The notes under the pieces: generated by a model
Told to the model about the DNA's origin: nothing
What the model saw: the letters and a program-made list of their open reading frames with translations, nothing else
Database searches by the model: none
Virus record (IMG/VR): IMGVR_UViG_2531839665_000019
Span: 1 to 39,711 of that record
Strand: one strand, 5' to 3'
Source of the DNA: a virus
Lineage: Duplodnaviria > Heunggongvirae > Uroviricota > Caudoviricetes
Length of the DNA: 39,711 bases
Shown here: piece by piece, positions 593 through 38,700 of the stretch
Position numbering within the stretch: the stretch's first letter is position 1
Layout of the letters: the number at the start of each line of letters is the position of its first letter
Made by a program: the position numbers and the translations under genes

Positions 593-2479
593 TTACTCGA
601 TGCGCACAAACAGGCAGATACGACCGCTTGTTCCGTAAGAGTCCCTGACCCCGGATAGCGCCATATAACGCCCCGGAAAAGTGTACCCTGTTGCTCCTGC
701 ACTTGGTGTTGAACCGTAAGAGCCAGGCCCAGCAGAAGATATTGTGCACGAAAGATTAACTCCGCCCAGTTGTGACCCCTGCACCACATCACCCAGGCCA
801 ATTTTGATTTCTTTATCCCCGGAAGTTGTTCCGCGATAAACGGCCAGCACCGGAACACCAATTCCCGGATACTGAAAATAAGCGCCACTTCCCGACATGG
901 TCGAAAGATGCTCACTTAACATGTTTGACGTCAGAGACAGATTTATGACTGAAGTCAGCCCCCACGTCACCTCCCCGTCAGCATATGCAGAGCTGTACTG
1001 TGCATAAAAAACAGACTGGTCAGAATTTGGCTGATATCTGCTGTAAAAAAATAATCCTTTGTCAGTTTTTGCTGGATTACCGGTACTCATCCCGGACGGA
1101 AAAAGCTTCACATCGACAATACCTATAAAACAATCGAGGTCTGGAAAAATTTTTGAATTGTACGAATAAATAAAATAACAACCCTCCGTGACGTTTTTTA
1201 CCCACTCAAGGAATTTTTCATCGGAATTAAAATCAAGGCGCTCAGATTGTCTGAACGCATAACCAAAACCAAAGGCACCAGGCAGTGCCAGCCTGCCCGG
1301 TGTGCGGTCGCGGATATCGCTCTGGGGTTCCATCGTCGCAGCCGCTTTCAGTTCAAGCTCCGTGCGCATGGCTTCAGGTGTGTCCAGTGCCAGTAATGCG
1401 CGGGCTTTTTCTGACAGCTGCGCCAGTAAAATCCGGCCCTCTGCACTGAAATAAGGCAGTGTGTTTTCTTCCGGTGTTATCTGGCTGACAGCCGTTAACA
1501 CGTCATTAAGCGGCTGTTTACCTGCCAGTGCTTTAGTGACCGTTGTCGCAAAGTTCGGGTCATGGCCCAGCGCCGCTGCCAGCTCATTCAGCGTGTCCAG
1601 GGCTTCCGGTGACGAGCCAACCAGCGCAGCAAGCAGTTTGCGGACAAACGCCGCGTTCGCCATCTCCAGCCCGGTCGCATCGTCCGGTGGTGTTGGTGTG
1701 GTTGGCGTACCTGTGAACGCCGGGCTGTCCAGCGGCGCTTTTGTTTTCGTCTCGTCCATGACGGTTTTGACAGCCATTGGTGTGGCAGCCAGTTCTTCGC
1801 TGTCGTTGTCTGTATCACTACAGAGTTGCACCAGACCTTTTTCTGTTGTGGAAGCATTGCTTCCCTTCAGGTCATCAACTATCCGTTGCGCCTCGTCCCT
1901 GTGCTGTTTCGCTTCCTGCGCATTGCCTGCGCTCGCATCCTGACTGGCTTTAGCCTGTCGGGCATATTCGGCAGCGTTATTTTCGCGGCCCAGTGCAACA
2001 TTTGCCGATTGCTCAGCACTGGTCGCCGCTGAAGATGCAGCATTCCGATGGAGACGGGCATTTTTGGCTGCATTAATGGCTTCACTCCTTGCAGTGTCTG
2101 ATGCCTGCTCGCTTTCCGCTGCCGCTTCCGCGCTCTGCTGTGCCTGTTGCGCCAGTTCCTCAAAGCGTTTCACTACATCTGGCTTTAAATCGCTTTCATC
2201 AAGGGCAGTCAGAAAGTCGTTCAGCGTGCCGGGCTTTGAATCGTCGTAAACCGAAATGTCACCCACGCAGCACTTAGGGCCGTTCTTTTGCTTGATGTGT
2301 ACGGTGTATTTGCCTTTTGGTGCTTCAAAGGCATACTGTCCCGCTACATCGGTTTCAATAACCGCAAATGATTCTGTGACCACTTCACTGGTATTAACCA
2401 GTGCATCTAAATAAATTTTGCATTCCGCCATCGGAACGCCAGCGCCATTAATCAGCGCCCCTGAAATTAATACAGACAT
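593..2479 (-). CDS. tail fibre protein (628 aa, prophage tail-fibre N-terminal type)
   Basis: N-terminal region and Ala/Gln-rich coiled segment typical of enterobacterial side tail fibres; contains KGLVQL...AATP..AVK motif; ATG at 2479 with GAGG SD. Confidence 0.8.
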   Translation of the reverse strand: MSVLISGALINGAGVPMAECKIYLDALVNTSEVVTESFAVIETDVAGQYAFEAPKGKYTVHIKQKNGPKCCVGDISVYDDSKPGTLNDFLTALDESDLKPDVVKRFEELAQQAQQSAEAAAESEQASDTARSEAINAAKNARLHRNAASSAATSAEQSANVALGRENNAAEYARQAKASQDASAGNAQEAKQHRDEAQRIVDDLKGSNASTTEKGLVQLCSDTDNDSEELAATPMAVKTVMDETKTKAPLDSPAFTGTPTTPTPPDDATGLEMANAAFVRKLLAALVGSSPEALDTLNELAAALGHDPNFATTVTKALAGKQPLNDVLTAVSQITPEENTLPYFSAEGRILLAQLSEKARALLALDTPEAMRTELELKAAATMEPQSDIRDRTPGRLALPGAFGFGYAFRQSERLDFNSDEKFLEWVKNVTEGCYFIYSYNSKIFPDLDCFIGIVDVKLFPSGMSTGNPAKTDKGLFFYSRYQPNSDQSVFYAQYSSAYADGEVTWGLTSVINLSLTSNMLSEHLSTMSGSGAYFQYPGIGVPVLAVYRGTTSGDKEIKIGLGDVVQGSQLGGVNLSCTISSAGPGSYGSTPSAGATGYTFPGRYMALSGVRDSYGTSGRICLFVRIE

Positions 2480-6192: not shown

Positions 6193-6846
6193 TTAATTAA
6201 CCGGCGTGTCAGACATGCCGTGTGGGGTCGGGTGTTTGTGCGTTCCGATTTTAACGCCATTAATGGTGACGTCAACGGAGGTAATCACACCACCCACATG
6301 GTTGATGTTGCCTTCAAAGGTGGCGGCGTATTTCTTGCCCCCACTGATGGCCATGCCACCGTTGCCGGTGATTTTACCTTCCACCGTCAGCTTATCGCTG
6401 GCCGTCAGTAACGGTGTCGTGAATGCGGCGTTCTCCTCTGCCTCAACCTCATAGCGTTTGCATTTCACCCGGTAAACGTCACATTCGGTTTCAACAATCC
6501 GCCCGCGCTTCAGTACGATTTTCGCGCCTTCGTCGGTATACAGGGCCACCTCGCCGGGTTTCAGTTCCGTCAGGCGATATGCGCCGTGCTCTGTGGCCAC
6601 GACGACGGTATGGGAGGTATTACCGTTCAGCGGAACGGCAATACCCATTGAGCCGGGCGGCGGGGATGTGGTGAGGCCGTAATGCTGGAAATACTCCGCA
6701 CCGTCCAGCTGTTCGCCTGCCAGCCCGTTCAGCTGAAGTAGCTGTACTTTGGTAGAACTGTCTACCGTACCGGTCACCACCCTGAATGCCTGGCGAACGG
6801 CGGCCAGTGCCTGCTGTATGCGCTGATTAACCTTGTCCCACATCAT
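6193..6846 (-). CDS. baseplate assembly protein V / spike (Mu gp45-like)
   Basis: 217 aa; position after the P-like gene; beta-rich Gly-rich C-terminus. Confidence 0.65.
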   Translation of the reverse strand: MMWDKVNQRIQQALAAVRQAFRVVTGTVDSSTKVQLLQLNGLAGEQLDGAEYFQHYGLTTSPPPGSMGIAVPLNGNTSHTVVVATEHGAYRLTELKPGEVALYTDEGAKIVLKRGRIVETECDVYRVKCKRYEVEAEENAAFTTPLLTASDKLTVEGKITGNGGMAISGGKKYAATFEGNINHVGGVITSVDVTINGVKIGTHKHPTPHGMSDTPVN

Positions 6847-26929: not shown

Positions 26930-27024
26930 GATGGCGTCTCCGGTAGTAACTTACTGTTATTATAGCCATACATGATCGCCTGTACAGACCACAAAAAAGC
27001 CCCTGCAAGGCAGGGGCTGATTCT

Positions 27025-27438
27025 TTATTGTTTACGTGCTGCTCTGGCTCGTTTTCTGGCGTCTTTTGTCAGCGCCACCATCACCCCGAACAGTTGATCA
27101 TCTGTCAGCCATTCGATCACATGTTGCTTATACATGTGAGATGCCAGTCCTTCCGCATATGCCCAGGAACGACCGGCATCAGCCAGCAACGCTTCAATTT
27201 TGGATAATACCGATTTTCTGCTCATTGCCACACGGGGGCGGCGACCTTTACCGGCGGGGGCTTTACGCGGAAATCCCTGTTCGTGCATGTATTCCCGGAT
27301 GATGCGCAGTTCATCGAGGTTGCAGCGTGTGGTGCTGGTTTTACCGGTCAGGCGGGCCAGCGTCTGGCGATAAAGGACATCATCCCACCCCAGATACGCC
27401 TGACCGGCTTTAATGGCTCCGATCATCTTTTTCAGCAT
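27025..27438 (-). CDS. GemA-like regulatory protein (DUF1018, Mu gp16-like)
   Basis: N-terminus IKAGQAYLGWDDVLYRQTLARLTGKTSTTRCNLDELRII resembles the GemA pattern; start taken at internal ATG 27438. Confidence 0.6.
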   Translation of the reverse strand: MLKKMIGAIKAGQAYLGWDDVLYRQTLARLTGKTSTTRCNLDELRIIREYMHEQGFPRKAPAGKGRRPRVAMSRKSVLSKIEALLADAGRSWAYAEGLASHMYKQHVIEWLTDDQLFGVMVALTKDARKRARAARKQ

Positions 27439-27688
27439 GTTTGTTATCCTCAAAACGCACGGTAAAACGTGAAACGCCAATCCCTGACAGGAACGCAGCG
27501 GCACGGTCAAGAGACAGCCACGTCTTGTAATCGCCACGGCGTTCCTGTAGAAAATAGGACACCCCGGCGCGACGATTCACAGCAAAGAGGTGATACACAC
27601 CACCGAACCGCTGCACGACGAACTCATCCACGCCACCGCTTTCAGCCTGTTGCCTGAAAGCTGCCATTCCGATTTGTTCAATCTTCAT
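27410..27688 (-). CDS. hypothetical phage protein
   Basis: ORF downstream of a double palindrome; start ambiguous (27724, 27688 or 27667), none with a good SD. Confidence 0.35.
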   Translation of the reverse strand: MKIEQIGMAAFRQQAESGGVDEFVVQRFGGVYHLFAVNRRAGVSYFLQERRGDYKTWLSLDRAAAFLSGIGVSRFTVRFEDNKHAEKDDRSH

Positions 27689-27693
27689 AATGA

Positions 27694-27738
27694 CCAAAAC
27701 ACTACTTTTGGCAGACCAAAACATATGTTTTGGTCTGC
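27694..27738. promoter_or_regulatory. tandem palindromes sharing CCAAAAC/GTTTTGG half-sites (candidate operator)
   Basis: CCAAAAC-ACTAC-TTTTGG followed by the perfect 28-bp palindrome GCAGACCAAAACATATGTTTTGGTCTGC (27711-27738); centres about 22 bp apart. Confidence 0.45.
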
Positions 27739-27768
27739 GCTTGATTGTTATTTGCTCAATGTGGTGAA

Positions 27769-28020
27769 TTATTTATCACCATCACTGAGCGTCACTTCAT
27801 GGCAGGATGGCGTGCCATCTTTCCCGGCAGAGCAATAAATAAACTTATCTCCGTCGGTCATGGTGGCACTTCCATCATCACAATGCGTAATGGTTTTGAT
27901 GAAATTTCTCCTTACCACGCAATGCCCACTTTCCGCATCATCAGAAGCCTTGTTAGTTGTTACACAAAGCGCAATACCCGTAACAATCAGAGCGATAATA
28001 AAAATGTCAACCCATCTCAT
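27769..28020 (-). CDS. small Cys-rich exported/membrane-anchored protein
   Basis: 83 aa from ATG 28020; N-terminal hydrophobic segment WVDIFIIALIVTGIALC then four Cys in about 60 aa; low-GC region. Confidence 0.5.
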   Translation of the reverse strand: MRWVDIFIIALIVTGIALCVTTNKASDDAESGHCVVRRNFIKTITHCDDGSATMTDGDKFIYCSAGKDGTPSCHEVTLSDGDK

Positions 28021-28024
28021 CTTT

Positions 28025-28210
28025 TCACCCCGCGTAATCAGGTCCGTGTTCCCATCTGGCATCGAGTATTTCCGTTCCATCTGTCCGGCATGGGTTATCA
28101 AGTGCCATTTTTCCGCACTCCCCATACTCGACATCGACAAAATCAGCAATATCATTGTCCGTTGCGTTATCAGGAACGTCGATTTCAACCGTTACGGTGA
28201 TAGTTTTCAT
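28025..28210 (-). CDS. small highly acidic protein (candidate DNA mimic)
   Basis: 61 aa from ATG 28210 (GGAG SD); about 28 percent Asp/Glu. Confidence 0.45.
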   Translation of the reverse strand: MKTITVTVEIDVPDNATDNDIADFVDVEYGECGKMALDNPCRTDGTEILDARWEHGPDYAG

Positions 28211-28251
28211 CAGGTTGTTACTCCGTGATTCAGAAAATTTCATGCCGGGAC

Positions 28252-28665
28252 TCAGTATGTGAAATAGACAGTTGCCACACCGTTATAGTGGTCAAACGAC
28301 ACGGCGTTTACCTCATAACTGGCCGGGAGCTTCGAGCCAAGAACGTATCCGGGCCACGTTTTCCATGGAATTTCTCTGCTCTCACCATCGCCATATACCG
28401 TACATCCCAGTGAGCCTACAGCTTCAGAAGAACGCTTACCGCACGTTATGAACCCCAGATTTTGCTTACTGCCCTTAACAGAAATCGGGAGAGCACTGGC
28501 TGATGCATTAGCAGCACGCTGTGCCTGTTGATTTGCGATATTCGCAGAGTTCGCAGCAGCTGCGGTAGCAGCCGTGGTCGCAGCGGCAGATGCCACAATA
28601 ACTGCTGAGGCCTGCGCCTGTTGGGTAATTGTCAGCAATACCGCCACAAAAATCATTTTCTTCAC
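28252..28665 (-). CDS. secreted protein with signal peptide and Ala-rich linker
   Basis: GTG start at 28665 with AGGAGG SD at 6 nt; signal peptide MKKMIFVAVLLTITQQAQA; two Cys in a beta-rich C-terminal domain. Confidence 0.6.
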   Translation of the reverse strand: MKKMIFVAVLLTITQQAQASAVIVASAAATTAATAAAANSANIANQQAQRAANASASALPISVKGSKQNLGFITCGKRSSEAVGSLGCTVYGDGESREIPWKTWPGYVLGSKLPASYEVNAVSFDHYNGVATVYFTY

Positions 28666-28843
28666 CTGGTACCTCCTTTACATACCGTGATTTTTCCAGC
28701 GGTTTTGGGCTGCGCTTCTGTTTCGCCAGACACCGTAAAAACGAATAGAGGACCACTCTCTAAAACCAAGATATCTATAGCGAACAACAAGCCGATTTGA
28801 GATACGGATAAGCTGCCAGGGTTTTGCTGTCAGCAGTCTTGCT

Positions 28844-29050
28844 TTACGGTTTTTCATCGTTTTGCTCTCCTGTGTGTACTACTGGCTCTGCGCTACCAGC
28901 CCTGCGGCGCTCCTGAAGTTCAGTCAGGGACTGCCGTAAAAGCGTCCACCACTCTCTGTCTACAATCGGCCCGCGCATATCAAGCATTTTGTCAGCATCG
29001 GCAATCAGTCTGGTCAGGCTCTTATCGCTTATTCTGGTTTGCTGGTTCAC
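28844..29050 (-). CDS. hypothetical phage early protein
   Basis: 68 aa ORF in co-directional early operon. Confidence 0.4.
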   Translation of the reverse strand: MNQQTRISDKSLTRLIADADKMLDMRGPIVDREWWTLLRQSLTELQERRRAGSAEPVVHTGEQNDEKP

Positions 29051-29271
29051 TGCGCCGCCTCCTGTTTTGCCACTTTAAACGCCCGTAACATCGGAACCGT
29101 TTTACCGGTGATGACGGTTTTCATTAAAAGGCCACCGCCACTCTGGTGGCGCACTTCAGGAGCCACAAACAGCGCCGCATCCACAACCCGGTTATAGCGG
29201 CGAAACTCCCAGAGCCAGCAGGTAACAATGATTTTTGCTTTAGTCCCATAGTTATAAAATTCAATATTCAT
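29047..29271 (-). CDS. hypothetical phage early protein
   Basis: 74 aa ORF, start/stop overlapping neighbours. Confidence 0.4.
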   Translation of the reverse strand: MNIEFYNYGTKAKIIVTCWLWEFRRYNRVVDAALFVAPEVRHQSGGGLLMKTVITGKTVPMLRAFKVAKQEAAQ

Positions 29272-29495
29272 TTGCAGTTAAACCTCCTTTTATGACGCTC
29301 TACGGCGGCTTTCATGGCGTTGTGCACGGTTCTTTTAATAATCCGGTGTCCTGCACTGTCATAGAACCGCCACCGGGAAGCCCCCGGATATTTAGGGAAC
29401 TCAACCGCCGCGCTACCGTCATTCATCCTGTATTCGTGGCGTTCTCCCGGGGGCTGGTATATTGCTTCGGTAACACTGAGAAGTTTAAAAGCCAT
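29268..29495 (-). CDS. hypothetical phage early protein
   Basis: 75 aa ORF, translationally coupled to neighbours. Confidence 0.4.
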   Translation of the reverse strand: MAFKLLSVTEAIYQPPGERHEYRMNDGSAAVEFPKYPGASRWRFYDSAGHRIIKRTVHNAMKAAVERHKRRFNCK

Positions 29496-29497
29496 CG

Positions 29498-30208
29498 TTA
29501 CACCCTCCCCAGTGCCAGCGTTTTGTTGCTCTGACCATTAACCCCCTGATGCAGTCTGGCGTTTTTCCCGGCGATAAAACCGGCAGTAGCGGCAAACTCT
29601 GCACCCCGGCACGCTTTAGCCGTACGCATATCCCCGTCGCGCAGGCCTTTAGTGCTGTGCAGGTTCTTTCTGTAAAGCTCAAGGCGGCTTTTTTCTTCCG
29701 GGGAGACGTCATACACCGCAATGACATCACGGGCACCAAAGACCCAGCCTTCGCAGAACTGGTCGCCACGGGCTACCCGCGTGGACGGACCGCAACGTTT
29801 GCAGTGTTTATCCTGATATTTTTTACGTTCAGCCATCATCTGACGGGAAAGCACATCAAACGCGTATGCCGCAATTTCCGGGCGGCTGTCAGGACCATAA
29901 AAACGAACGTAACGTTTGAGTGAACCAGAAGCCCGGTATTCGCCGGATATGTAACACTCGACACCGAAGGCTTTACAGACCAGGTCACACAGGATGTGCA
30001 TATAACGCGGCGGTGTACTGGCATCACTCGGCGCACCCGCGCTGGCAGCTTCCTGAATGTCGAACAATTCCGCGTCGTTTTCGCTGATGCCATGCTGGCG
30101 CATATAAGCCTGGGCTTTTGCAATAGCGTTAGCGGCTTCTTCCGGGCTTGATGTTCCTCTGGCAAGGCGTAACAGTTTTTTGATTTTGGCAATGTATTTA
30201 TCTTTCAT
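29498..30208 (-). CDS. DUF2786-like phage protein with Cys cluster
   Basis: 236 aa; N-terminus KIKKLLRLARGTSSPEEAANAIAKAQAYM resembles DUF2786; Cys cluster CKRCG...FCEGW suggests metal binding. Confidence 0.55.
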   Translation of the reverse strand: MKDKYIAKIKKLLRLARGTSSPEEAANAIAKAQAYMRQHGISENDAELFDIQEAASAGAPSDASTPPRYMHILCDLVCKAFGVECYISGEYRASGSLKRYVRFYGPDSRPEIAAYAFDVLSRQMMAERKKYQDKHCKRCGPSTRVARGDQFCEGWVFGARDVIAVYDVSPEEKSRLELYRKNLHSTKGLRDGDMRTAKACRGAEFAATAGFIAGKNARLHQGVNGQSNKTLALGRV

Positions 30209-30221
30209 GGTCGTCTGAACC

Positions 30222-30404
30222 TCAGCATCCTGAATTCTGAATTACGCAACTTCCGGCACGGCCTTCAGGAACGTGGGGAGTTCGTTCTGGCTGCGGTACT
30301 GAATGAACATCTGCTGTCGATTGAGAACTGGTCGCAAGACGATTAAAACAAACGATTGTCAGATTAATTTCGCGGGCGAACTTTTTTTGCTTAGCGATAT
30401 TCAT
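30222..30404 (-). CDS. small hypothetical protein
   Basis: 60 aa ORF; ATG 30404 preceded by a conserved hairpin element and GAGAGAG. Confidence 0.3.
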   Translation of the reverse strand: MNIAKQKKFAREINLTIVCFNRLATSSQSTADVHSVPQPERTPHVPEGRAGSCVIQNSGC

Positions 30405-30420
30405 AAATAAACTCTCTCTG

Positions 30421-30455
30421 ATTCAGGCGTAAGCCAGCCCCGGCGGGTTTACGCC
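30421..30455. repeat. conserved intergenic hairpin element, copy A
   Basis: ATTCAGGCGTAAGCCAGCCCCGGCGGGTTTACGCC; about 14-bp imperfect stem; followed on plus strand by AT-rich AATTAAAAAC. Confidence 0.55.
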
Positions 30456-30484
30456 ATATACAAATAAAATTAAAAACAGACTTA

Positions 30485-31030
30485 TTAACTACGACGTTCA
30501 GTTTTCCGGTAATGGCGGTCAACAGATTTAACGAACGCCTTCACATCACGGGAAATCGAATCCAGCGGATAATATTTATCCAGCAGTTCCATTCCGCTGA
30601 ATCGAATCTGAAAAAAATCAGGCTTATCTTTATATGACTCCATCAGGTCAATAAACCGCAGCTGACGCGGGAGGGATTCCTGCACGCCTGAAATAGTGAG
30701 CAAATCATCTTCAAGGATATATGCGAGGTCTTCCATATCCTTACAGTCAGACATCATGGATATTCTTGTCAGTATGTTCCGTGTGGCGATATACAGCGCG
30801 GCTGTGTCATTCGCCATCATGGCGAACAAATCCCCCTGAATATAAGCCCCCTTACTGGCCATAGCATTCCCGGCAATCTGCGCATCAAGTACCACATACA
30901 TAAAATCGCCAGGTGCACCCAGATGGCCCAGCAATGATGACGCCCATAACGTTACATTGGTTAACTTCCCAGATGAACGGACAGCAAAACCTTCAGGAGT
31001 AACAATAAATTCCCAGACTTTATCTTTCAT
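30485..31030 (-). CDS. hypothetical protein (low-GC cassette)
   Basis: 181 aa from ATG 31030; flanked by hairpin elements; lower GC than phage backbone. Confidence 0.5.
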   Translation of the reverse strand: MKDKVWEFIVTPEGFAVRSSGKLTNVTLWASSLLGHLGAPGDFMYVVLDAQIAGNAMASKGAYIQGDLFAMMANDTAALYIATRNILTRISMMSDCKDMEDLAYILEDDLLTISGVQESLPRQLRFIDLMESYKDKPDFFQIRFSGMELLDKYYPLDSISRDVKAFVKSVDRHYRKTERRS

Positions 31031-31045
31031 ATACAAATCCCCTTA

Positions 31046-31074
31046 ATTCAGGCGCAGACCTGTTTACCTGCGCC
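31046..31074. repeat. conserved intergenic hairpin element, copy B (divergent stem)
   Basis: ATTCAGGCGCAGACCTGTTTACCTGCGCC; same ATTCAGGCG...CGCC flanks as copies A and C; followed by A-run and GTTAAAAATCG. Confidence 0.45.
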
Positions 31075-31094
31075 ATAAAAAAACGAAGTCAGAG

Positions 31095-31487
31095 TTAAAA
31101 ATCGAAGACGTCAGTTAATTCCCGCTTCAGTGAAACGCACTCAGAATAAAAGCCCTCGCTCTCACCGCACCATCTGACGACTACACAGCCTTTTGATGTG
31201 CCGAACTTAAAGAAACTCCATGTCTGATGACCTTCCCCAACATCACATTCTTCGGTAACCACTTCAGCCTCTGTCAGCGGTTCATCTTTCAGGTCGTCAA
31301 GGTCTCCGACGATGTCCTCAATCCAGACTTTTTCGCAGCCTTCCTGAAAGTGGAAAAATGTAAACACGGTTCCCCATACTCCCCGGGAATAATCACCACG
31401 AAAAACAAGTTCATCGTTTTCATTCTTAACTACTTCTTTAAATGTACGCCCGAGCATTTCATTGATAACGGTAACACTCATTTTCAT
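31095..31487 (-). CDS. acidic hypothetical protein (low-GC cassette)
   Basis: 130 aa, Asp/Glu-rich; ATG 31487 preceded by hairpin copy C and GGAGAAATG. Confidence 0.5.
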   Translation of the reverse strand: MKMSVTVINEMLGRTFKEVVKNENDELVFRGDYSRGVWGTVFTFFHFQEGCEKVWIEDIVGDLDDLKDEPLTEAEVVTEECDVGEGHQTWSFFKFGTSKGCVVVRWCGESEGFYSECVSLKRELTDVFDF

Positions 31488-31495
31488 TTCTCCAG

Positions 31496-31530
31496 ATTCA
31501 GGCGTAAGTCAGCCCCGGCTGGTTTACGCC
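31496..31530. repeat. conserved intergenic hairpin element, copy C
   Basis: ATTCAGGCGTAAGTCAGCCCCGGCTGGTTTACGCC; differs from copy A at two stem positions, partly compensatory. Confidence 0.55.
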
Positions 31531-31561
31531 TGTTTTAAATAACAATTAAAAACAAATTAAA

Positions 31562-31753
31562 TTAATGCGGTGCTTTCAGTGTTTCGACTTTTACGAAATA
31601 AGGCTCGACATTAATTTCAACCACACAACCACATTTAAAATCTCTGGCAGGTGAAACGGTTTTCACCACACGACCACCACGCAACGCCGGATGTGCAGTG
31701 TGCATGAAGCGAGTCCCTACCGGATACTGCTTATTAAAGTTCTTCGCATTCAT
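31562..31753 (-). CDS. small hypothetical protein
   Basis: 63 aa ORF in early operon. Confidence 0.4.
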   Translation of the reverse strand: MNAKNFNKQYPVGTRFMHTAHPALRGGRVVKTVSPARDFKCGCVVEINVEPYFVKVETLKAPH

Positions 31754-31967
31754 GGCGTGGCCTCCAGCCCTTCAGGTGAGCGTTAGCGCAGAACTCCGCA
31801 CGATGTTCAGCCCAGATGCGGCGCAGGGTGCTACACGGGCTTTGTGCTGCCTTACGCCACAGCTTTTCAGCCTCGGCATAATCACCGCGCTGTTCAGCTC
31901 TTGACGCTCCCAGTGAATACGCCGCGCAACGGTTCCCGGCTCTGTACTCTTTGATATCCTGATGCAT
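31734..31967 (-). CDS. small helical protein, possibly ANR-family-like regulator
   Basis: 77 aa from ATG 31967 (AGGGG SD, coupled to upstream stop); GDYAEAEKLWRKAAQSP resembles my recollection of the ANR (Aar-like) signature. Confidence 0.4.
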   Translation of the reverse strand: MHQDIKEYRAGNRCAAYSLGASRAEQRGDYAEAEKLWRKAAQSPCSTLRRIWAEHRAEFCANAHLKGWRPRHECEEL

Positions 31968-31968
31968 G

Positions 31969-32613
31969 TTAAACCCCTGCAATATCAAGCGGGATTGCGC
32001 GATATTCGTCAGAATCGCCGACGCGCTCATACACACGAATATAGCTCTTGCTGCCAATCACCTGGACGGCTTCACCAATCAGCGTCATTGCGTTATTCCA
32101 GCGTTCGTCCTCAATTTCAAGGCGACGCAAGGCCAGAACGCGCCCGGTGTTAATGTTGCCTTCCTTGTCCGTGCTGAATGCCTCGCTGATGATGGCTTTG
32201 ATTTCAGGGCGTGCACCTTCCGTCCAGTCAGCCAGGCAATCATCAATCAGCGACTTCGCGGTCTGAATGCGTTCATCAAACGCGATACGGTCCTGCATGG
32301 CGCGCTGAATCTTGTAACGCCCGTCAAAGCTGTAAAGCGTGATATTCCCTTTTTTGCCGCCTTTCACAGCACCGTATTTCTCCGCCGACAGGTCAATAAA
32401 TGCCTGGATATCACCAAACGCACGCAGTTTCAGTTCACGCAGTGAGGCGGAGGCAGCAATCACCATCTCCACAAGCTCACCGACCAGCTGCTCACGGTCG
32501 CGGTCAATATCTTTGATAAGGCTTTCAGGTGTCATTACGCCACGGGCATCCACCCAGTAACCTTCAGGCGCTTGAGTTTTCGTGTATTGCTTAACTTTAT
32601 TTTCAGTCGTCAT
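31969..32613 (-). CDS. hypothetical phage early protein (possibly DUF3164-like)
   Basis: 214 aa ORF; family assignment is weak recall only. Confidence 0.5.
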   Translation of the reverse strand: MTTENKVKQYTKTQAPEGYWVDARGVMTPESLIKDIDRDREQLVGELVEMVIAASASLRELKLRAFGDIQAFIDLSAEKYGAVKGGKKGNITLYSFDGRYKIQRAMQDRIAFDERIQTAKSLIDDCLADWTEGARPEIKAIISEAFSTDKEGNINTGRVLALRRLEIEDERWNNAMTLIGEAVQVIGSKSYIRVYERVGDSDEYRAIPLDIAGV

Positions 32614-32642
32614 AATTAAATTACCTCAGTGATATTTACAGA

Positions 32643-32858
32643 TTAATGTGTGTTATGTGCGCAGGGTTCCACGCCAACAGAAAATAAATCAACGCCGTTA
32701 AATTCTTTATTAAGAGTTTGATTCATTACCTCCCATAACCGTTGTCTTACACCGACCTCTTCATCCGTAAATCCTTTTTTATCAATAGCCCCCATACTCC
32801 TGACACGAAGCGTGCCGTTTTCATCGGTGTAGATAATTACTTCTAACTTGACCGCCAT
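32643..32858 (-). CDS. small hypothetical protein
   Basis: 71 aa ORF downstream of B. Confidence 0.4.
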   Translation of the reverse strand: MAVKLEVIIYTDENGTLRVRSMGAIDKKGFTDEEVGVRQRLWEVMNQTLNKEFNGVDLFSVGVEPCAHNTH

Positions 32859-32870
32859 TCTGATTTCCTC

Positions 32871-33110
32871 TTATTGCCATACGACGGTGCAGCCGTCGAT
32901 ACAGGACGTTTTCACCACGCGGCGCAGGCCGCTGAATGTCTGGACGATTTCCGTTACCGGCCATACAGGACCACCCACGGGCGGGCAGGCATAAACCACA
33001 GGTAAACGGTGATGCTGTCCCGTTACACGACCGCCGGTGGTGTGAATGGCCACACGGGCACGGGAACGGACGGCGTTAATGGTCTGCTTGTCCATCGTCT
33101 TATTCTCCAT
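32871..33110 (-). CDS. small hypothetical protein (kil-position gene)
   Basis: 79 aa ORF immediately downstream of MuB-like gene; no sequence support for function. Confidence 0.35.
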   Translation of the reverse strand: MENKTMDKQTINAVRSRARVAIHTTGGRVTGQHHRLPVVYACPPVGGPVWPVTEIVQTFSGLRRVVKTSCIDGCTVVWQ

Positions 33111-34003
33111 CAGTGAATTAACATTTCTGCGAATTTATCAATGGCCTGCACACTGACCGGCGCATCGCTGATATCACAAATCCGGTACACACCACGCGCC
33201 AGTTTGAACAGGCGGCGGGCATTACCCAGCGAACGTGTATAAAGCGCCTCGCTGATTTCCGGTTCTGCTGCTTCCGGCATCAGCCCGGTGGCTATCTGGT
33301 TAAAATCTTCCTGCGCCAGCGTATCGCCCAGGTTAAGCGCCAGCGCCACACGGCTGTATAACTGGGCGAACTCACCGCGACGTCCCTTGAGGTTAATCAG
33401 AAGGCGTGGCATACCCGCCAGGACAATCCCGATACCCGCTTTGTCATGCAGACGGCGCAGAACCTCCAGTGCGCGATAGGGGAGCAGTTCAGCCTCGTCC
33501 ACCATCAGCAGGCGACCGGAATCACGCAGTTCTCGCACACATGCATCAATCAGTTCGTGGATATTGCCGCGAACTTTTACCCCCAGCTGGCGGCACAGCT
33601 CCTCAAGCAGTGTTCTGGCTGTATAGCCCGGGTCGGCTTCAATCAGGACCGCATCCCGGTTTCTGGCGGCGTATTCACGCAGAATCATTGTTTTGCCAAG
33701 ACCTGCCGCGCCATACAGTACGCAGATTTCACATTCCAGGTGAGCATAGGCCAACACCTCCAGTCCTTTGGCAGCCATACCGGTGGCAACAAATTTCGCT
33801 TTAATACGGCGGCTGTTTTCCTTTTCCCGCTCACGGGTCACAAAGGCAGAAATGCGTTCTTCAATATCAGCCATATCGCCCTGATATTTACCCTGTAAAT
33901 ACTGGTTGATAACGGCGCTGCTACGACCAATAGCACGGGCGACGTGGGTTTGCGTATAGCCGCGACGGGTCATTACGTCATTTAATTGCGTAATTAAACT
34001 CAT
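33110..34003 (-). CDS. B: transposition ATPase MuB-like (AAA+)
   Basis: 297 aa; Walker A GAAGLGKT; N-terminal HTH-like region; immediately downstream of transposase. Confidence 0.85.
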   Translation of the reverse strand: MSLITQLNDVMTRRGYTQTHVARAIGRSSAVINQYLQGKYQGDMADIEERISAFVTREREKENSRRIKAKFVATGMAAKGLEVLAYAHLECEICVLYGAAGLGKTMILREYAARNRDAVLIEADPGYTARTLLEELCRQLGVKVRGNIHELIDACVRELRDSGRLLMVDEAELLPYRALEVLRRLHDKAGIGIVLAGMPRLLINLKGRRGEFAQLYSRVALALNLGDTLAQEDFNQIATGLMPEAAEPEISEALYTRSLGNARRLFKLARGVYRICDISDAPVSVQAIDKFAEMLIH

Positions 34004-34021
34004 AATTAAATACCTTTTAAA

Positions 34022-36064
34022 TTAACGGTTGTTTGTGCCGTTTTTCTTTAAATTGCGTTCGCGTTCAGATGCGAATAAATAAAGTTCTTCTTTTTCCTTT
34101 TTCTCCGGGCGTTCCAGTCCATATCCCAGATTAAAGTCAGGCTTCTGCGTAATGGCCGGGGTAAGCTCGCGTTTAGCCTCTTCGATTTTCTGCGTGGCCC
34201 GTGCAATGCGGCCCCTGACGCGTTTCTCCAGTTTTTGTTCGATAACTGGTTTAGCGAAGGCATCAACCTTGTTACCGTTCCAGATGGCATCGCAGATATA
34301 AGAGCCATCAGCCCGCCGGACAATGACGCTGTTTGCATCATGAATATCGTAACTGACCCTGACTTCATTCCCGTGCTCTGCGGCCAGATCATATGAGTAA
34401 TAAATATTGTTGAATAACTGAATTTCCCCGCGAAATGTTTTGCGCGTCACTTCCGGTCTGAACATTTCATGCAGTTCTTCCGGCGACAGGAAATCAATTT
34501 CAACATTCTGCTCTTTTATCAGTTTCCGGCGATACGCTGCCGGGCTGTAATATTCGCCATCCTCTTTGCGTGGTAGGCTGCTGTGTGGCCGGTTGTTATA
34601 GCGTCTGACCTCCAGCTCTATGGCTGCCATCAGTTGCTCAAAGGTAGGGATTTCATCCCTCGCCTTAACCTGCCGTTTTGTCAGCTCTTTCCCTTTGTGG
34701 GTGGCCTTAATGGCTGACTGCATAATCCGTTGCTGCATCATTACGGTTTCCTTGTCTGCATCCCTTGCGCAGTACGTCTGGAAACTCAGAGCCACGTCTT
34801 TGGGTATTCCTTTGTTTGCCCGTTCAATCACCCCGCGCCCCTGCGGGTTACCTGGTATCCCCGTGTGATGTTCCACACCCAGCCGGGGCAGAATCCCGGT
34901 AATATCGGCATCAAGCACCCGGTTTTTTTCACCGCCCCCGTTATCGGAGTAATAAATCAGCGGTATCCCGTGCTGCGCCATGCCGTAACGTAACGCATCA
35001 GCAACGGCTATCACGTTCTCCGACAGGGACAGTGACCAGCCCACAACAAAGCGTTGCCCAGCATCCATAACAAGCGTCACTTCTGGCCGGAAAATATTGC
35101 CGGTCAGGGGGTTAAACGCGGTCATTTTCATACAGTGACCATCCCCGACCCATACCGCATTAACTGGTAGCGATGTCCAGTCGCGCCGCACAAAGGGATT
35201 GAGCGAACGCCAGGCTGAACCGGTGGAGCGGAAACGCTCTTTAACAATCACCGGGACGCTGCTTAACACCCGTCTTACTGCGTGAACTGAAGGTAATGCT
35301 GCCAGCATTCCCGCATCATTCGCGTGCTTTTCATGCCACCAGGCTGAAAACTCTCGATACGCATATTCAACGGTCGGGCGCTTCCATGAGCGATAGAACA
35401 TAAAGAAATCGCTCAACCACCAGACCTGCTCCCACGGTGTTCCCTTATGATGACCGGGAGCCAGTAACGCCAGTAACTGATTGGCATCACCGCGCGCCAT
35501 CAGCCAGGCGGAATACCATTCCTGTAAACTCCCTGTACTGACGCCAGTTCGCTTACCCTGTCGGGCATTGGCGGTATTACCTGCCACAATAACACGCTCG
35601 GGCAAAGCCTCCTGGCGGATACCATCAACGATGTGTTTTATCGCCGCCGTCCTGGACATTCCTGCGTATTCACGCAGTTTATGCACTTCGGTAGCCAGCA
35701 ATATCCGCGCATCAGCGATGGCCTTTTGCTTGTCGGTCAGTGCCTGGACTTCGCGTAATGCCAGCTCCGGGCATTTGACCATCACCTCCAGTTCATCGCG
35801 GACGGTGACGTTTTTAACTGCCTTCTGCTCAACCACGGCGGGCAGTTGCGCATCTTCCAGAACCTGATGAGTCAGGCGCTTACGTAAAACTTTCTGCGCT
35901 TCAGTGGGCAGGCAGTCGATGTGATACTCGAATGCTTTGGTGCCTTCACGCTTGCGCTTCCATTCCGGGTGCGTCTCTGTGATCCGATTGAGCGTCCAGC
36001 GCACCCCCTGAACTGTACCGGGCAAACCAGGAAGACCGGCCAGCTCATTGGCTGAATAAAACAT
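34022..36064 (-). CDS. A: DDE transposase MuA-like
   Basis: 680 aa; N-terminus with LPGLPGT motif like MuA; catalytic-region motifs VWVGDGH and YYSDNGGGE; start coupled to ner stop. Confidence 0.9.
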   Translation of the reverse strand: MFYSANELAGLPGLPGTVQGVRWTLNRITETHPEWKRKREGTKAFEYHIDCLPTEAQKVLRKRLTHQVLEDAQLPAVVEQKAVKNVTVRDELEVMVKCPELALREVQALTDKQKAIADARILLATEVHKLREYAGMSRTAAIKHIVDGIRQEALPERVIVAGNTANARQGKRTGVSTGSLQEWYSAWLMARGDANQLLALLAPGHHKGTPWEQVWWLSDFFMFYRSWKRPTVEYAYREFSAWWHEKHANDAGMLAALPSVHAVRRVLSSVPVIVKERFRSTGSAWRSLNPFVRRDWTSLPVNAVWVGDGHCMKMTAFNPLTGNIFRPEVTLVMDAGQRFVVGWSLSLSENVIAVADALRYGMAQHGIPLIYYSDNGGGEKNRVLDADITGILPRLGVEHHTGIPGNPQGRGVIERANKGIPKDVALSFQTYCARDADKETVMMQQRIMQSAIKATHKGKELTKRQVKARDEIPTFEQLMAAIELEVRRYNNRPHSSLPRKEDGEYYSPAAYRRKLIKEQNVEIDFLSPEELHEMFRPEVTRKTFRGEIQLFNNIYYSYDLAAEHGNEVRVSYDIHDANSVIVRRADGSYICDAIWNGNKVDAFAKPVIEQKLEKRVRGRIARATQKIEEAKRELTPAITQKPDFNLGYGLERPEKKEKEELYLFASERERNLKKNGTNNR

Positions 36065-36300
36065 TACGCCGCCTTACTGGCATACCGGCTTGGCCAGATC
36101 TCCGCAGGTTCCACACCAATAGCATCGGCTATGATGCGTTCATATTTAGGGCATGAGCGATACAGTGCATTTTTTAAAGAGTCTTTTTTTAGACCAGCGC
36201 GTTCAGAAAGTTCACGCAATGTAAAACCTTTGGTGTGCACAGCGGCAACGATGTACTCGCGGTGCCAGTCTTTGTTCATTACTTCATTTCTAACCATCAT
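36064..36300 (-). CDS. ner: Ner-like DNA-binding regulator
   Basis: 78 aa from ATG 36300 (AAGGG SD); DWHREYIV...KNALYRSCPKYERIIADAIGVEPAEIWPSRY matches the Ner/Nlp pattern. Confidence 0.85.
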   Translation of the reverse strand: MMVRNEVMNKDWHREYIVAAVHTKGFTLRELSERAGLKKDSLKNALYRSCPKYERIIADAIGVEPAEIWPSRYASKAA

Positions 36301-36316
36301 TAGGTTACCCTTAAAA

Positions 36317-36359
36317 GTTATCCGTACGGATAACACCGCCGTGTTATCCCTTCGGATAC
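36317..36359. promoter_or_regulatory. two operator-like palindromes (GTTATCC-N4-GGATAAC) in the ner/repressor divergent control region
   Basis: Perfect palindrome GTTATCCGTACGGATAAC (36317-36334) and near-copy GTTATCCCTTCGGATAC (36343-36359), just upstream of ner. Confidence 0.5.
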
Positions 36360-36468
36360 AAGTATTGATCCATAAATAGAAAATTACAAGCTTTCTTTTC
36401 TTGATTTAGAGAAAAGAAAGTCTCTTTGTGGAGATTGGTTGAAAATCAATATGTTAGAAGGAAAGAAA

Positions 36469-37119
36469 ATGAGTAAACAAACCGCTGATGATTTTTCCTT
36501 TTCTCAGGATAGAAAAGAAAGCATTCAAGACAGAATCAAACAACTGATTGGCAGCAGGAGCCTGCGTAAAGCCACCTCAGACTGGGGATTACCGTACTCG
36601 ACCATAAATAACTACTTTGAAAAAGGCACCACACCTGGCCTAAATGTGGTCGCTACAATAGCAAAATTAGAGAATGTATCACTGGAATGGCTGGTCTATG
36701 GTGAGAACAAAAACATTCTAATGATAGAAAACACAAAGGTGGCTACAGAAGACGTTAACCGCCCCGATACAAGTATTGTTGACGAAATACTAAGACGAGC
36801 CGCTCCAGAAGATAGAGAGCGTCTTATTGATATGCTTTGTTGTATTGGTATCAAAGGAGTCCTGGAACGCTTACAACAACCCATCAGGCAAGCTACGCAG
36901 GCCGACAGCGACCAAGACGAACAGGAGAATGCCATCAGAAGCCTAAACATCAGGGAATCACTCAAAGACGTTATATGTATGGCTCTAGATGGTAATGAAG
37001 AAACCGACAAAGAGATTTTGCGACGCATCGAATCTCGTGCACGGGCTGGGTCGCCAGGTGGTCAGACCGCTGCCACGCCGGAACAAGAAACGAAGCCTGT
37101 AAGCAAAAAATCAGCATGA
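36469..37119 (+). CDS. phage repressor (CI-like HTH)
   Basis: Start taken at ATG 36469 (AGGA SD); HTH-like segment STINNYFEKGTTPGLNVVATIAKLENVSLEWLVYGE; divergent from ner/A/B as for the Mu c repressor. Confidence 0.7.
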   Translation: MSKQTADDFSFSQDRKESIQDRIKQLIGSRSLRKATSDWGLPYSTINNYFEKGTTPGLNVVATIAKLENVSLEWLVYGENKNILMIENTKVATEDVNRPDTSIVDEILRRAAPEDRERLIDMLCCIGIKGVLERLQQPIRQATQADSDQDEQENAIRSLNIRESLKDVICMALDGNEETDKEILRRIESRARAGSPGGQTAATPEQETKPVSKKSA

Positions 37120-37280
37120 ACGCCTACTGCCTGGTGGGCGCATGCTGCTAACTAATTAGCGACATCCACAACAAAACCAATACAGAAGACGGATAAGAAA
37201 GGGACAAATTAAGCAAGGTTAAAACGGGTTTTAAAATCTTTTAAAAGGCGATCGCTTTCCTGCACCACCAGATCAAAGTA

Positions 37281-37414
37281 GTCCAGAATAAAGCGTAAAA
37301 AAAGGCACTTTTGGTCATTTCTTTCAAAACGATCCAGAATCGGTGAAATCTCTCACATCCCGCACCACTCAAGGCTTGCAGGTTCGTCCAGGCTGCTCGG
37401 ACCCAGTCCAGAAT
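37281..37414. repeat. three copies of (G/A)TCCAGAAT near the prophage left end (candidate transposase-binding sites)
   Basis: GTCCAGAAT at 37281-37289, ATCCAGAAT at 37332-37340, GTCCAGAAT at 37406-37414, all in the same orientation within 135 bp. Confidence 0.4.
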
Positions 37415-37430
37415 TGATCACCACCCCACA

Positions 37431-37667
37431 AATACAGCGGTAGGTCTGGGGCTATACCCGGATTACGCAACGGCTGTTGATAAGATGGTTCGCGTGAAAG
37501 ATATCTTTATACCGATTGAGAGCAATGCCAAACGCTACGACGCGATGAATAAAGGCATTTTCAAAGACCTAACCAAACATACTGATGTGATCCTGAAAAA
37601 ATCGTATGAAGTGATGCATGGGGAATTGGGGAATGTGGATTCGATCCAGAGCTGGTCGAATGCGTAA
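37431..37667 (+). pseudogene. 3' fragment of host FGGY-family sugar kinase gene (ygcE-like), truncated by the prophage
   Basis: Open frame encodes ...NTAVGLGLYPDYATAVDKMVRVKDIFIP...SWSNA*, resembling FGGY kinase C-termini; upstream residues in the same frame are non-kinase-like; 5' boundary approximate. Confidence 0.45.
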
Positions 37668-37675
37668 GTGAGGAA

Positions 37676-37699
37676 GGCCGGGCGGGAAACTGCCCGGCC
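37676..37699 (+). other. GC-rich stem-loop downstream of the kinase stop
   Basis: GGCCGGGC-GGGAAACT-GCCCGGCC; 8-bp GC stem; no U-tract follows, so terminator function uncertain. Confidence 0.3.
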
Positions 37700-37713
37700 T
37701 GAACATACCTGAA

Positions 37714-37851
37714 TGGTTATCCCCGCTGACGCGGGGAACATAAGTTCGACAACTTAAAAAATGATAACAAGTCCGGTTTATCCCCGCTGATGCAGGGAAC
37801 ATAATAAAAACTTTAACTAGTTCGGTTTATCCCTGTTTTTACAAGGAATAT
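37714..37851 (-). CRISPR. degenerate type I-E CRISPR remnant (3 decayed repeats; spacers 32 and 20 bp)
   Basis: Repeats at 37714-37741, 37774-37802 and 37823-37851 with 2 to about 10 mismatches versus CGGTTTATCCCCGCTGGCGCGGGGAACTC. Confidence 0.6.
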
Positions 37852-38305
37852 TAACTACACTCGATGTCTTTAGAATAAAAGACAATACGAATCGCACTTT
37901 ATCAATTTTCACTTAAAGTATGAACTGGATATCTTTATTCATAAGAACTATTCATCAACAGCGTATAGAGGCGGTTATGTAAAACCACTCATTAGCCTCA
38001 AAACAAAGACAAACTTCCAGATTTATTACTTAACCAATGAATAACAAGCTTAAAAAACATACTGTTATTCTAAAGAAAAAATTAACAGGCATTAATTCAA
38101 TATTAAAAAAATAATAGATTAAAATTTCTTAACGATTTAAGAATCATACAAATAACACTTTGATTAAATTTAATTTTTTGTATCGATAATTGTGAACCTC
38201 TCTGGCATGGAGAACTATTTTGAACATGAGGTGTTACGTGGATATGTTGCTTATTACAAGTACTGCTAATATAAAAACTTGAGAAAGAGATAACGGGTTA
38301 TATGG

Positions 38306-38700
38306 TGGTTTATCCCCGCTGGCGCGGGGAACTCTAATCACGTTTTAGCGCGCCCTCGTCCGGTTTCGGTTTATCCCCGCTGGCGCGGGGAACTCAAGAC
38401 GACGTGATCCGCAAAGTCGAAGGCACGCGGTTTATCCCCGCTGGCGCGGGGAACTCTGTTTTTCTGCCGGTTTAACACGGTGCGATAACGGTTTATCCCC
38501 GCTGGCGCGGGGAACTCTGTTTCTGTCCCAACTGAACAGCGCCGATAGTCGGTTTATCCCCGCTGGCGCGGGGAACTCGAATGATCCCAAATTTGGGTTA
38601 CAGAACCAGTCGGTTTATCCCCGCTGGCGCGGGGAACTCGGACTTAAAGATCGCATCACAGTACTGGAGGGCGGTTTATCCCCGCTGGCGCGGGGAACTC
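38306..38700 (-). CRISPR. type I-E CRISPR array, 7 repeats / 6 spacers (E. coli ygcE-ygcF CRISPR2-type locus)
   Basis: 29-bp repeat CGGTTTATCCCCGCTGGCGCGGGGAACTC at 38306, 38367, 38428, 38489, 38550, 38611, 38672; all spacers exactly 32 bp; leader-distal repeat (38306) has a terminal base change. Confidence 0.95.

Follow-up and report, generated by a model that had tools for sequence, protein, structure and literature searches.

What is the role of a short, GC-rich hairpin that stands three times between the small early genes of a Mu-like prophage, and why do those genes sit beside it? The locus lies in a stretch of 39,711 nucleotides of viral DNA (IMG/VR record IMGVR_UViG_2531839665_000019, positions 1 to 39,711; this whole stretch is called the window). 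The window sequence is identical to E. coli strain C5 (NZ_CP010122.1); its host element is a Mu-like prophage of that strain, and the hairpin block belongs to the early operon, on the minus strand of the window. The order of genes in this operon (Mu transposase, MuB-like ATPase, two small genes, a DUF3164 gene, an ANR-like gene, a gene for a 63-amino-acid protein, the hairpin block and a DUF2786/DUF7168 gene, with GemA and Mor further on) bears out the placing of the hairpins in the phage early region, made when they were first noticed by reading the sequence (the original prediction). The explanation that we favour, with middling confidence, is that the hairpin is a conserved intercistronic module of the enterobacterial Mu-like early operon, which would both punctuate the mRNA and provide a homology linker for the exchange of gene cassettes.

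The three modules had been located on the minus strand at 30421-30455 (copy A), 31046-31074 (copy B) and 31496-31530 (copy C), and these coordinates proved exact. The pattern GGCG-N10-30-CGCCTGAAT matches the window four times, against 0.05 matches expected from shuffled sequences; three of the matches are the hairpins, all on the minus strand, and the fourth, at 9563, is not a hairpin. Each copy folds with a stable stem (about -13 to -20 kcal/mol), made of a 7-bp outer stem, an internal mismatch, a short inner stem and a G-rich tetraloop. The stem amounts to 11-13 bp, and copy C is the only one of the three in which flanking sequence lengthens it (z -2.9). Copies A and C are 82% identical over 57 nucleotides. 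They differ at hairpin positions 11 and 22, where one difference creates a pair (C.U to A-U) and the other disrupts the pair next to it (C-G to C.A); because one pair is gained and another lost, the earlier description of these differences as partly compensatory is fair. The claim that the hairpins are not classical terminators also holds, since no U-tract follows any of the three copies on the sense strand. A promoter scan of positions 27000-38500 found no sigma-70-like site in the three gaps, and the Shine-Dalgarno (SD) sequence is not sequestered by the hairpin.

The module is laid out as a stop codon, an AT-rich spacer of 20-47 nucleotides, a GC-rich hairpin of 24-31 nucleotides, a short A/U-rich tail, the SD sequence and the start codon. 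The stem always ends about 17-28 nucleotides before the start codon, and the SD sequence begins 1-10 nucleotides after the tail. Upstream of the stem, TT at positions -9/-8 is invariant (alignment A1) and a TTTAA-like motif 4-9 nucleotides away is common. The tail had been described as TGAAT(C); among relatives it is TGAAT, TAAAT, AAAAT, TGATT, TGAAA or ATAAT, and it is not a constant part of the module. Across loci, nucleotide identity to the window is 85% in the hairpin, compared with 70% in the DUF3164 gene, 64% in the region of the 63-amino-acid gene and 59% in the spacer. By this measure the hairpin is the best-conserved stretch of its neighbourhood.

In a model-based alignment of 70 distinct rows, 92.5% of the cells are paired, compared with about 40% when the 3' partners are slid, and both sides have changed in 7 of the 11 pairs, a count reached by none of 500 shuffles. 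Together with the 0.05 matches expected by chance, these figures mark the repeat as a conserved structure. The outer stem exists as GGCGTAA/TTACGCC, as GGCGCAG/CTGCGCC (copy B) and as GGCGCGA/TCGCGCC (Mu and SfMu), while the inner stem varies in register and sequence (CGC/GCG, GUC/GAC, GUC/GAU, CGU/ACG) around NGGR loops. The near-fixed parts are the GGCG/CGCC base, which is invariant, an A at position 8 and the motif CGYCRGG in the G-rich apical loop.

How widespread is this structure? It is present in about 150 Mu-like prophages of Escherichia, Klebsiella, Salmonella, Serratia, Providencia, Morganella and Cedecea, after a conserved early gene of about 63 codons. Among viral contigs, an exact-pattern scan gave 79 loci, mostly on Mu-like contigs of 33-36 kb. 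A covariance model of the hairpin (R1), built from 31 distinct copies, matches only on the sense strand of the early operon. In the window it picks out the three copies and nothing else; in the complete genome of Mu it has a single match, at 6354-6405, inside the 98-nucleotide gap between gam and gene 11, a hairpin that neither of the Mu GenBank records annotates. To guard against ascertainment by the pattern, 53 new loci were chosen only by their neighbouring DUF3164 protein, which served as the anchor in place of the 63-amino-acid family, too diverged for an alignment-based locus search. The element lies 200-500 nucleotides downstream in 43 of the 53, always on the sense strand. Eleven of the loci chosen in this way have no match (L222 and ten others); in eight of them an HU-like gene follows DUF3164, and most of the loci without a match belong to a different-looking lineage of apparently higher GC content.

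In genome records, the element occurs in Serratia, Providencia, Morganella, Cedecea and Symbiopectobacterium, Klebsiella and Salmonella being added by protein-anchored look-ups; the pattern scan of genome contigs had given 73 matches, mostly chance or unrelated hairpins, only 6 of them family members. Within E. coli, it is found at 90 places in 59 of 5426 genomes, with 1-4 copies per genome. A query with the 1.6-kb prophage region returned 58 E. coli records, a number close to that of the 59 hairpin-bearing genomes. A Salmonella Mu-like prophage that encodes Gam (L247) has three hairpins, at 1442-1491, 2439-2490 and 2898-2949. One, of the Mu type (CGGCGCG…CGCGCTG), comes right after gam; the two others are of the window type and come after the 63-amino-acid gene and after a DUF7448 gene. 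The presence of both types in a single prophage links them. In Rfam, no family matched the window at its gathering score or by the E-value threshold, the best sub-threshold hit being Lnt, at 26.7 bits against a cut-off of 55.

The pattern scan also returned, from metagenome-assembled genomes of Desulfobacula and Desulfobacteraceae (L107, L108, L153, L154, L156 and L157), hairpins with the same termini, ATTCA-GGCGTAA…TTACGCC-TGAAT, and unrelated inner sequence. They recur beside a 'ttgttggagt' motif and look like an unrelated repeat family.

The position of the hairpins relative to the genes is best followed along the operon. From the conserved early block to the next backbone gene, in the direction of transcription, the window contains:

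31562-31753, minus strand: conserved basic early gene for the 63-amino-acid protein (phrog_5591), the usual gene 5' of the primary hairpin
31531-31561, minus strand: spacer C, AT-rich, with TTTTTAA and TTTAAAACA right before the stem; its sequence goes with the upstream gene
31496-31530, minus strand: hairpin copy C (GGCGTAAACCAGCCGGGGCTGACTTACGCC) with a TGAAT tail, the primary, backbone copy (60.8 bits, E 5e-14)
31095-31487, minus strand: cargo gene 1, acidic DUF7448 protein, with a likely start at 31481 giving 128 amino acids
31075-31094, minus strand: spacer B, T-rich (CGTTTTTTTAT), present 3' of DUF7448 in L001, L004 and L060
31046-31074, minus strand: hairpin copy B (GGCGCAGGTAAACAGGTCTGCGCC) with TGAAT, a short variant with a compensated outer stem (35.9 bits, E 2e-6), which travels with DUF7448
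30485-31030, minus strand: cargo gene 2, an ORFan of 181 amino acids restricted to E. coli (phrog_7741), absent from L004
30456-30484, minus strand: spacer A (TTTTTAATTTTATTTGTATAT), invariably 3' of the 181-amino-acid gene
30421-30455, minus strand: hairpin copy A (GGCGTAAACCCGCCGGGGCTGGCTTACGCC) with TGAAT, the commonest sequence type of the hairpin family (69.7 bits; 59 of 5426 E. coli genomes)
30209-30404, minus strand: segment of about 200 nucleotides with a doubtful open reading frame (ORF) of 60 amino acids, a block present or absent in relatives and lacking in L003, L004, L049 and L053
29498-30208, minus strand: DUF2786/DUF7168 gene, the next conserved backbone gene, which the primary hairpin abuts directly in many relatives

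Is the hairpin then part of a foreign cassette, as its company of low-GC genes had suggested? It is rather an old and conserved part of the backbone, with one copy in most relatives and one in Mu. Homologues of the 63-amino-acid protein (pI 9.8) that are only 45-54% identical to it, in Klebsiella phages and phage VW-6B, keep the hairpin. The lower GC content of the enclosed genes is real (0.441 for the hairpin block, 0.533 for the window); it is not specific to the cargo, because the conserved upstream gene is equally low (0.448). The gene products themselves say little. The DUF7448 protein is acidic, as had been noted (pI 4.4), and is more likely to be of 128 than of 130 amino acids, given the start called by the Prokaryotic Genome Annotation Pipeline (PGAP), an ATG at 31481 with an SD sequence 8 nucleotides upstream; in Klebsiella and Salmonella Mu-like prophages this family occupies the same slot. 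The 181-amino-acid ORFan is represented in the protein collection by no more than 21 clusters, none below 83% identity, and its AlphaFold2 model, all-helical with a pLDDT of 48, is unusable. The third gene of the original prediction is doubtful: the 60-amino-acid ORF has no PGAP call, substitutions among ten variants show no codon-position bias, and it is probably not a gene. The segment that contains it is probably a remnant or a leader fused to the shortened 5' end of the DUF2786 gene. Searches of Pfam, PHROG, PADLOC and PDB sequences were uninformative, giving no defence-system or Pfam assignment for any of the cargo, and the 1.6-kb block had no match in the phage DNA database, the cassettes being known only from prophages.

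Within the 60-amino-acid segment, the second half looks more protein-like in another frame (…MFIQYRSQNELPTFLKAVPEVA*). The DUF2786 gene fused to it starts MKDKYIAK and not MENKSKYIAK; this fusion with an altered start makes 30209-30404 look like the remnant of an older cassette.

The genes on the two sides of the hairpin behave very differently. In a sample of 95 copies, the upstream genes fall into 5 clusters and the 63-amino-acid family accounts for 78 of 91 copies, whereas the genes directly downstream fall into 17 unrelated clusters, the DUF2786 family holding that place in 15 copies. In E. coli, by sequence inspection, the gene that follows the 63-amino-acid gene and its hairpin is DUF7448, the 181-amino-acid gene, the 60-amino-acid segment or DUF2786. 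The cargo between the 63-amino-acid gene and DUF2786 is nothing at all, the 60-amino-acid segment, the 181-amino-acid gene, the latter two together, DUF7448 alone, or all three; the 58 E. coli genomes with the region are covered at 100%, about 72%, about 60% or about 51%, classes that correspond to different cassette sets. Another lineage has a 125-amino-acid cassette in slot 2 of L078 (three hairpin copies) and in slot 1 of L047, and lacks it in L010. In SfMu and three Yersinia phages, a DUF5420 gene of 555 nucleotides lies between the tail of the Mu hairpin and the SD sequence of gene 11, within about 8 nucleotides after the hairpin. Thus, in related Mu-like prophages, the element does mark the borders of variable gene content, contrary to the outcome that would have refuted the original prediction. 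As read from these comparisons, the hairpin stands at the border between the conserved transposition and early block and a hypervariable block, additional cargo genes each bring their own spacer and hairpin, and the hairpin is the sole stretch similar enough between diverged phages for recombination.

Where the cassettes join is informative as well. Junctions between E. coli relatives lie within the hairpin or at its 3' edge; the AT-rich spacer never parts from the gene upstream, nor the SD region from the gene that follows. Among the hairpin variants, type B goes with its upstream gene, DUF7448. The CCAGGG variant goes with the downstream 60-amino-acid segment and the GTCGGGG variant with downstream DUF2786, regardless of the upstream gene. 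Variants that follow sometimes one neighbour and sometimes the other imply that crossovers are spread across the element, to the left and right of the loop alike, as would be expected of homologous exchange and not of a precise site-specific cut. Of the possibilities first raised, that of a cassette boundary stands. The original prediction also had each gene preceded by a hairpin. 'Followed by' is at least as apt, because spacer and hairpin type travel with the upstream gene; judged from the sequences, the unit is a gene with its 3' spacer and hairpin.

Some copies depart from the common form. A Salmonella Mu-like prophage (L246, 2911-2946) has an 18-nucleotide tandem duplication (TCGTCAGGGGATTGTTTA, twice) within the hairpin after DUF7448, and in L002 and L035 a single G is missing from the loop, which suggests that the hairpin tends to slip. 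After the second hairpin of L056 (about 726-777, minus strand), the next ORF starts with the first seven codons of the 181-amino-acid gene (MKDKVW…) and continues as an unrelated frame of 123 amino acids. This ORF is chimeric, and its two parts meet shortly after the gene start, not in the hairpin.

The mechanism that we propose has two steps. First, the hairpin would punctuate the long early mRNA: the unstructured AU-rich spacer would be a likely entry site for an endonuclease of the RNase E type, and the stable hairpin would protect the end of the processed segment, serving the downstream cistron as a 5' cap or shielding the upstream one as a 3' barrier, so that the stability and translation of the two blocks would be uncoupled. 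Second, since function would hold its sequence almost constant from phage to phage, the hairpin region could serve homologous recombination, by host or phage enzymes, as a linker of 30-55 bp. A single crossover would combine one phage's left arm with the right arm of a second phage, and exchange between direct copies would delete, duplicate or re-order cassettes. The cassettes of the window (DUF7448, the 181-amino-acid ORFan and the remnant) would be cargo gathered by such exchange.

Several points weigh against this scheme. An RNA function for the hairpin is something that we infer, and the evidence on the strand is mixed. All four single-sided changes in the outer stem give G.U on the sense strand, and a frequent C-to-U change beside the loop keeps a sense-strand wobble; however, position 8 in most variants is an A.C mismatch on the sense strand but a G.U pair on the antisense strand, whose fold is the more stable one in 24 of 32 variants. 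For this reason sense-strand RNA is only the more likely active form, not an established one, and the function may instead belong to the opposite strand or to the DNA. A specific factor may recognise the hairpin, as the strictly invariant GGCG/CGCC and the recurring CGYCRGG loop suggest. The high conservation could come from repeated gene conversion and not from function, and the sampled copies are phylogenetically related, so that the covariation counts overstate the number of independent events. Finally, the SfMu insertion has no second hairpin, and homology at both ends is thus not always present.

The last point would suit another explanation, to which we give a limited chance: cargo gathers in the only sizeable untranslated gap of an overlapping, translationally coupled operon, where alone insertions would be tolerated by selection, and the hairpin has no part in recombination, whether or not it does some housekeeping work. 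Indeed, the gap between gam and gene 11 is the sole large one before gemA in Mu, and in the window the genes to either side overlap or stand 1-29 nucleotides apart. A merely permissive gap of 80-100 nucleotides should nevertheless have breakpoints scattered over it, and they are not: the spacer of 20-47 nucleotides stays with the upstream gene and the variable DNA begins a few nucleotides from the stem. Nor would such a gap account for cargo genes that bring their own hairpins, for the same cassettes re-assorting between slots, or for the gaps of 218 and 95 nucleotides elsewhere in the operon of L001, which have no element.

It is less likely again that the hairpin is an operator for a sequence-specific RNA-binding (or single-stranded-DNA-binding) protein of phage or host, which would control translation or stability downstream, cassette exchange being a by-product. 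Precedents are Com on mom mRNA and N on boxB. The invariant base, the A at position 8 conserved with a variable partner, the loop motif kept despite the change of inner-stem register and the short, fixed spacing to the SD sequence all fit an operator, and a basic protein, the 63-amino-acid one, is encoded directly upstream in most genomes. Yet Mu, SfMu and the L012/L085 group have the hairpin and no detectable homologue of this protein, no RNA-binding domain was recognised in the neighbouring proteins, and the SD sequence is free.

We consider it improbable that the hairpin is a terminator or insulator, whether a sense-strand attenuator of the early transcript or an intrinsic terminator of antisense transcription entering the transposase block. 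The greater stability of most antisense folds points that way, as does copy C, which on the plus strand was scored as terminator-like, with the tail TGTTTTAAAT, and is the only copy to pass the terminator scan; the PeSL stem-loops of T4-like phages do terminate (PMC2839356). On the other side, the sense tails (UGAAUC, AAAAUC, TGATTC and similar) have no U-tract, the antisense tails are mostly mixed A/T (ATATACAAAT, ATAAAAAAAC, ATAATTAAAT), the four single-sided changes of the outer stem are A.C mismatches on the antisense strand, and no antisense genes or promoters are predicted nearby.

More improbable still is a bolder idea, that of a dedicated cassette-capture site at which a phage or host enzyme recognises the folded stem, as single-stranded DNA or RNA, and cuts at its 3' base; the enzyme would tell its site by the conserved unpaired A at position 8 and by the G-rich loop, and the early operon would be an integron-like platform for collecting and shuffling small accessory, possibly anti-defence, genes. 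Integron cassettes are similar in having a gene with a 3' imperfect inverted repeat and unpaired bases, in tandem arrays and in one orientation. The differences are that the present element has neither integrase nor R''/R' cores, that its cassettes have their own SD sequence but lie in a phage operon, and that the crossover positions vary. As a site-specific or hairpin-dependent recombination site of the attC, IS200/IS605 or Xer kind, cut at the 3' stem base, the hairpin is very improbable: the integron-like arrays, the conserved unpaired bases in the stem and a left border of variable DNA a few nucleotides from the stem in two diverged lineages recall such sites, but no integrase, HUH or Y1 transposase is encoded nearby, MuA and MuB alone being present, the attC cores RYYYAAC/GTTRRRY are absent from the sequence, crossovers occur on both sides of the loop and the tail is not conserved.

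Other readings were rejected on specific grounds. A promoter formed by the TGAAT/TAAAT or TTTAA motif has no sigma-70-like site, and the spacing across the hairpin is about 34 nucleotides. A -1 frameshift signal (TTTAAAT plus hairpin) would lie after the stop codon, with stops in all frames, and a small ORF ending at the TGA of TGAAT is incompatible with the variable tail. A repressor 'stoperator'-like site does not fit, as CTTTWAAWWAT is neither enriched in Mu nor clustered in the operator, and the phages are heteroimmune yet have the motif in common. Spacing and core motifs disagree with dif/Xer and attC likeness; for integron attC, GGCGTAAAC…GTTTACGCC does not fit GTTRRRY and no integrase is among the annotated neighbours. 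In a CsrA site, GGA would be expected, and the loop has it only in Mu. An intrinsic (Rho-independent) terminator would have the GC-rich hairpin, which is present, and a U-tract, which the sense tails lack. For a chromosomal repeat of the repetitive extragenic palindromic (REP) or BIME kind, the 90 places in 59 of 5426 E. coli genomes are too few, not being hundreds per chromosome.

The closest described system is that of the promoter early stem-loops (PeSL) of T4-type phages, of which the hairpin may be regarded as a Mu-phage analogue without the PeSL promoter or terminator. PeSL, intergenic motifs made of a promoter and a stem-loop, flank ORFan cassettes and bring about the shuffling of modules (PMC2839356; Comeau et al. 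2014, PMC4122927); their stem-loop is a tested terminator and the motif holds a consensus sigma-70 promoter (Arbiol et al. 2010, PMC2839356). Mini-circles formed between copies are a further PeSL trait. Both elements are repeated intergenic motifs with the order stop codon, AT-rich stretch, stem-loop, SD sequence and start, and in both the ends of indels and replacements between related phages fall in the motif, taken as a sign of homologous exchange between copies. The present element differs by having no promoter-like site or U-tract and by lying among genes inside one long operon, by its 1-3 copies per genome against about 50 PeSL, by its temperate, transposable host phages and by a hairpin sequence that is itself conserved across genera.

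The morons and the boundary or linker sequences of lambdoid phages, reportedly described by Juhala and colleagues in 2000 and by Clark and colleagues in 2001 and summarised in PMC4378225, are also similar: single extra genes of deviant GC content stand between genes adjacent in relatives, and short conserved sequences mark module junctions. Morons, in contrast, have their own promoter and terminator, whereas the cassettes at the hairpin show neither in the scan and their low GC content (0.44 vs 0.53) is shared by the 63-amino-acid gene; the linker of the Mu-like phages, unlike the lambdoid ones, is a structured, covarying hairpin with a fixed place in the operon. Non-terminator hairpins are known from the early RNase III sites of phage T7 and from REP-type stabilisers, and are thought to set the ends and stability of mRNA segments. 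The hairpins of the Mu-like phages likewise resemble one another, lie between small accessory genes on a polycistronic early mRNA and would punctuate it. RNase III sites of the T7 early type comprise about two helical turns of double-stranded RNA with an internal loop, and the stem described here, of about 11-13 bp with mismatches, is short for RNase III. REP sequences show no similarity to the element, which appears confined to Mu-like prophages.

Two further observations concern other parts of the window. A sharp GC trough (0.26) lies at 37800-38199, near the repressor end of the prophage. At about 28839-28872, 34 nucleotides are identical to many Shiga toxin (Stx)-converting and 933W-like phages, in a hypothetical or ead/Ea22-like gene region, a sign that lambdoid phages and the Mu-like early region may have exchanged DNA.

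In the literature searched, we found no publication describing the hairpin and no relevant work on the structure or processing of Mu early transcripts. Mu is a textbook system, and its GenBank records do not annotate the hairpin in the only large gap of its early operon. According to a 2014 comparison of Mu-like phages of Pseudomonas, the flanks of accessory genes must still be analysed before anyone can propose how genes are gained (PMC4378225). In the enterobacterial group, the hairpin offers a concrete and testable answer: a linker of conserved structure where the accessory block starts and where cassettes re-assort. A search with the hairpin model R1, followed by a reading of the next ORF, would collect the variable early genes of these prophages, obvious candidates for a part in anti-defence or host takeover, and the hairpin itself points to a possible post-transcriptional control point in the Mu early operon.

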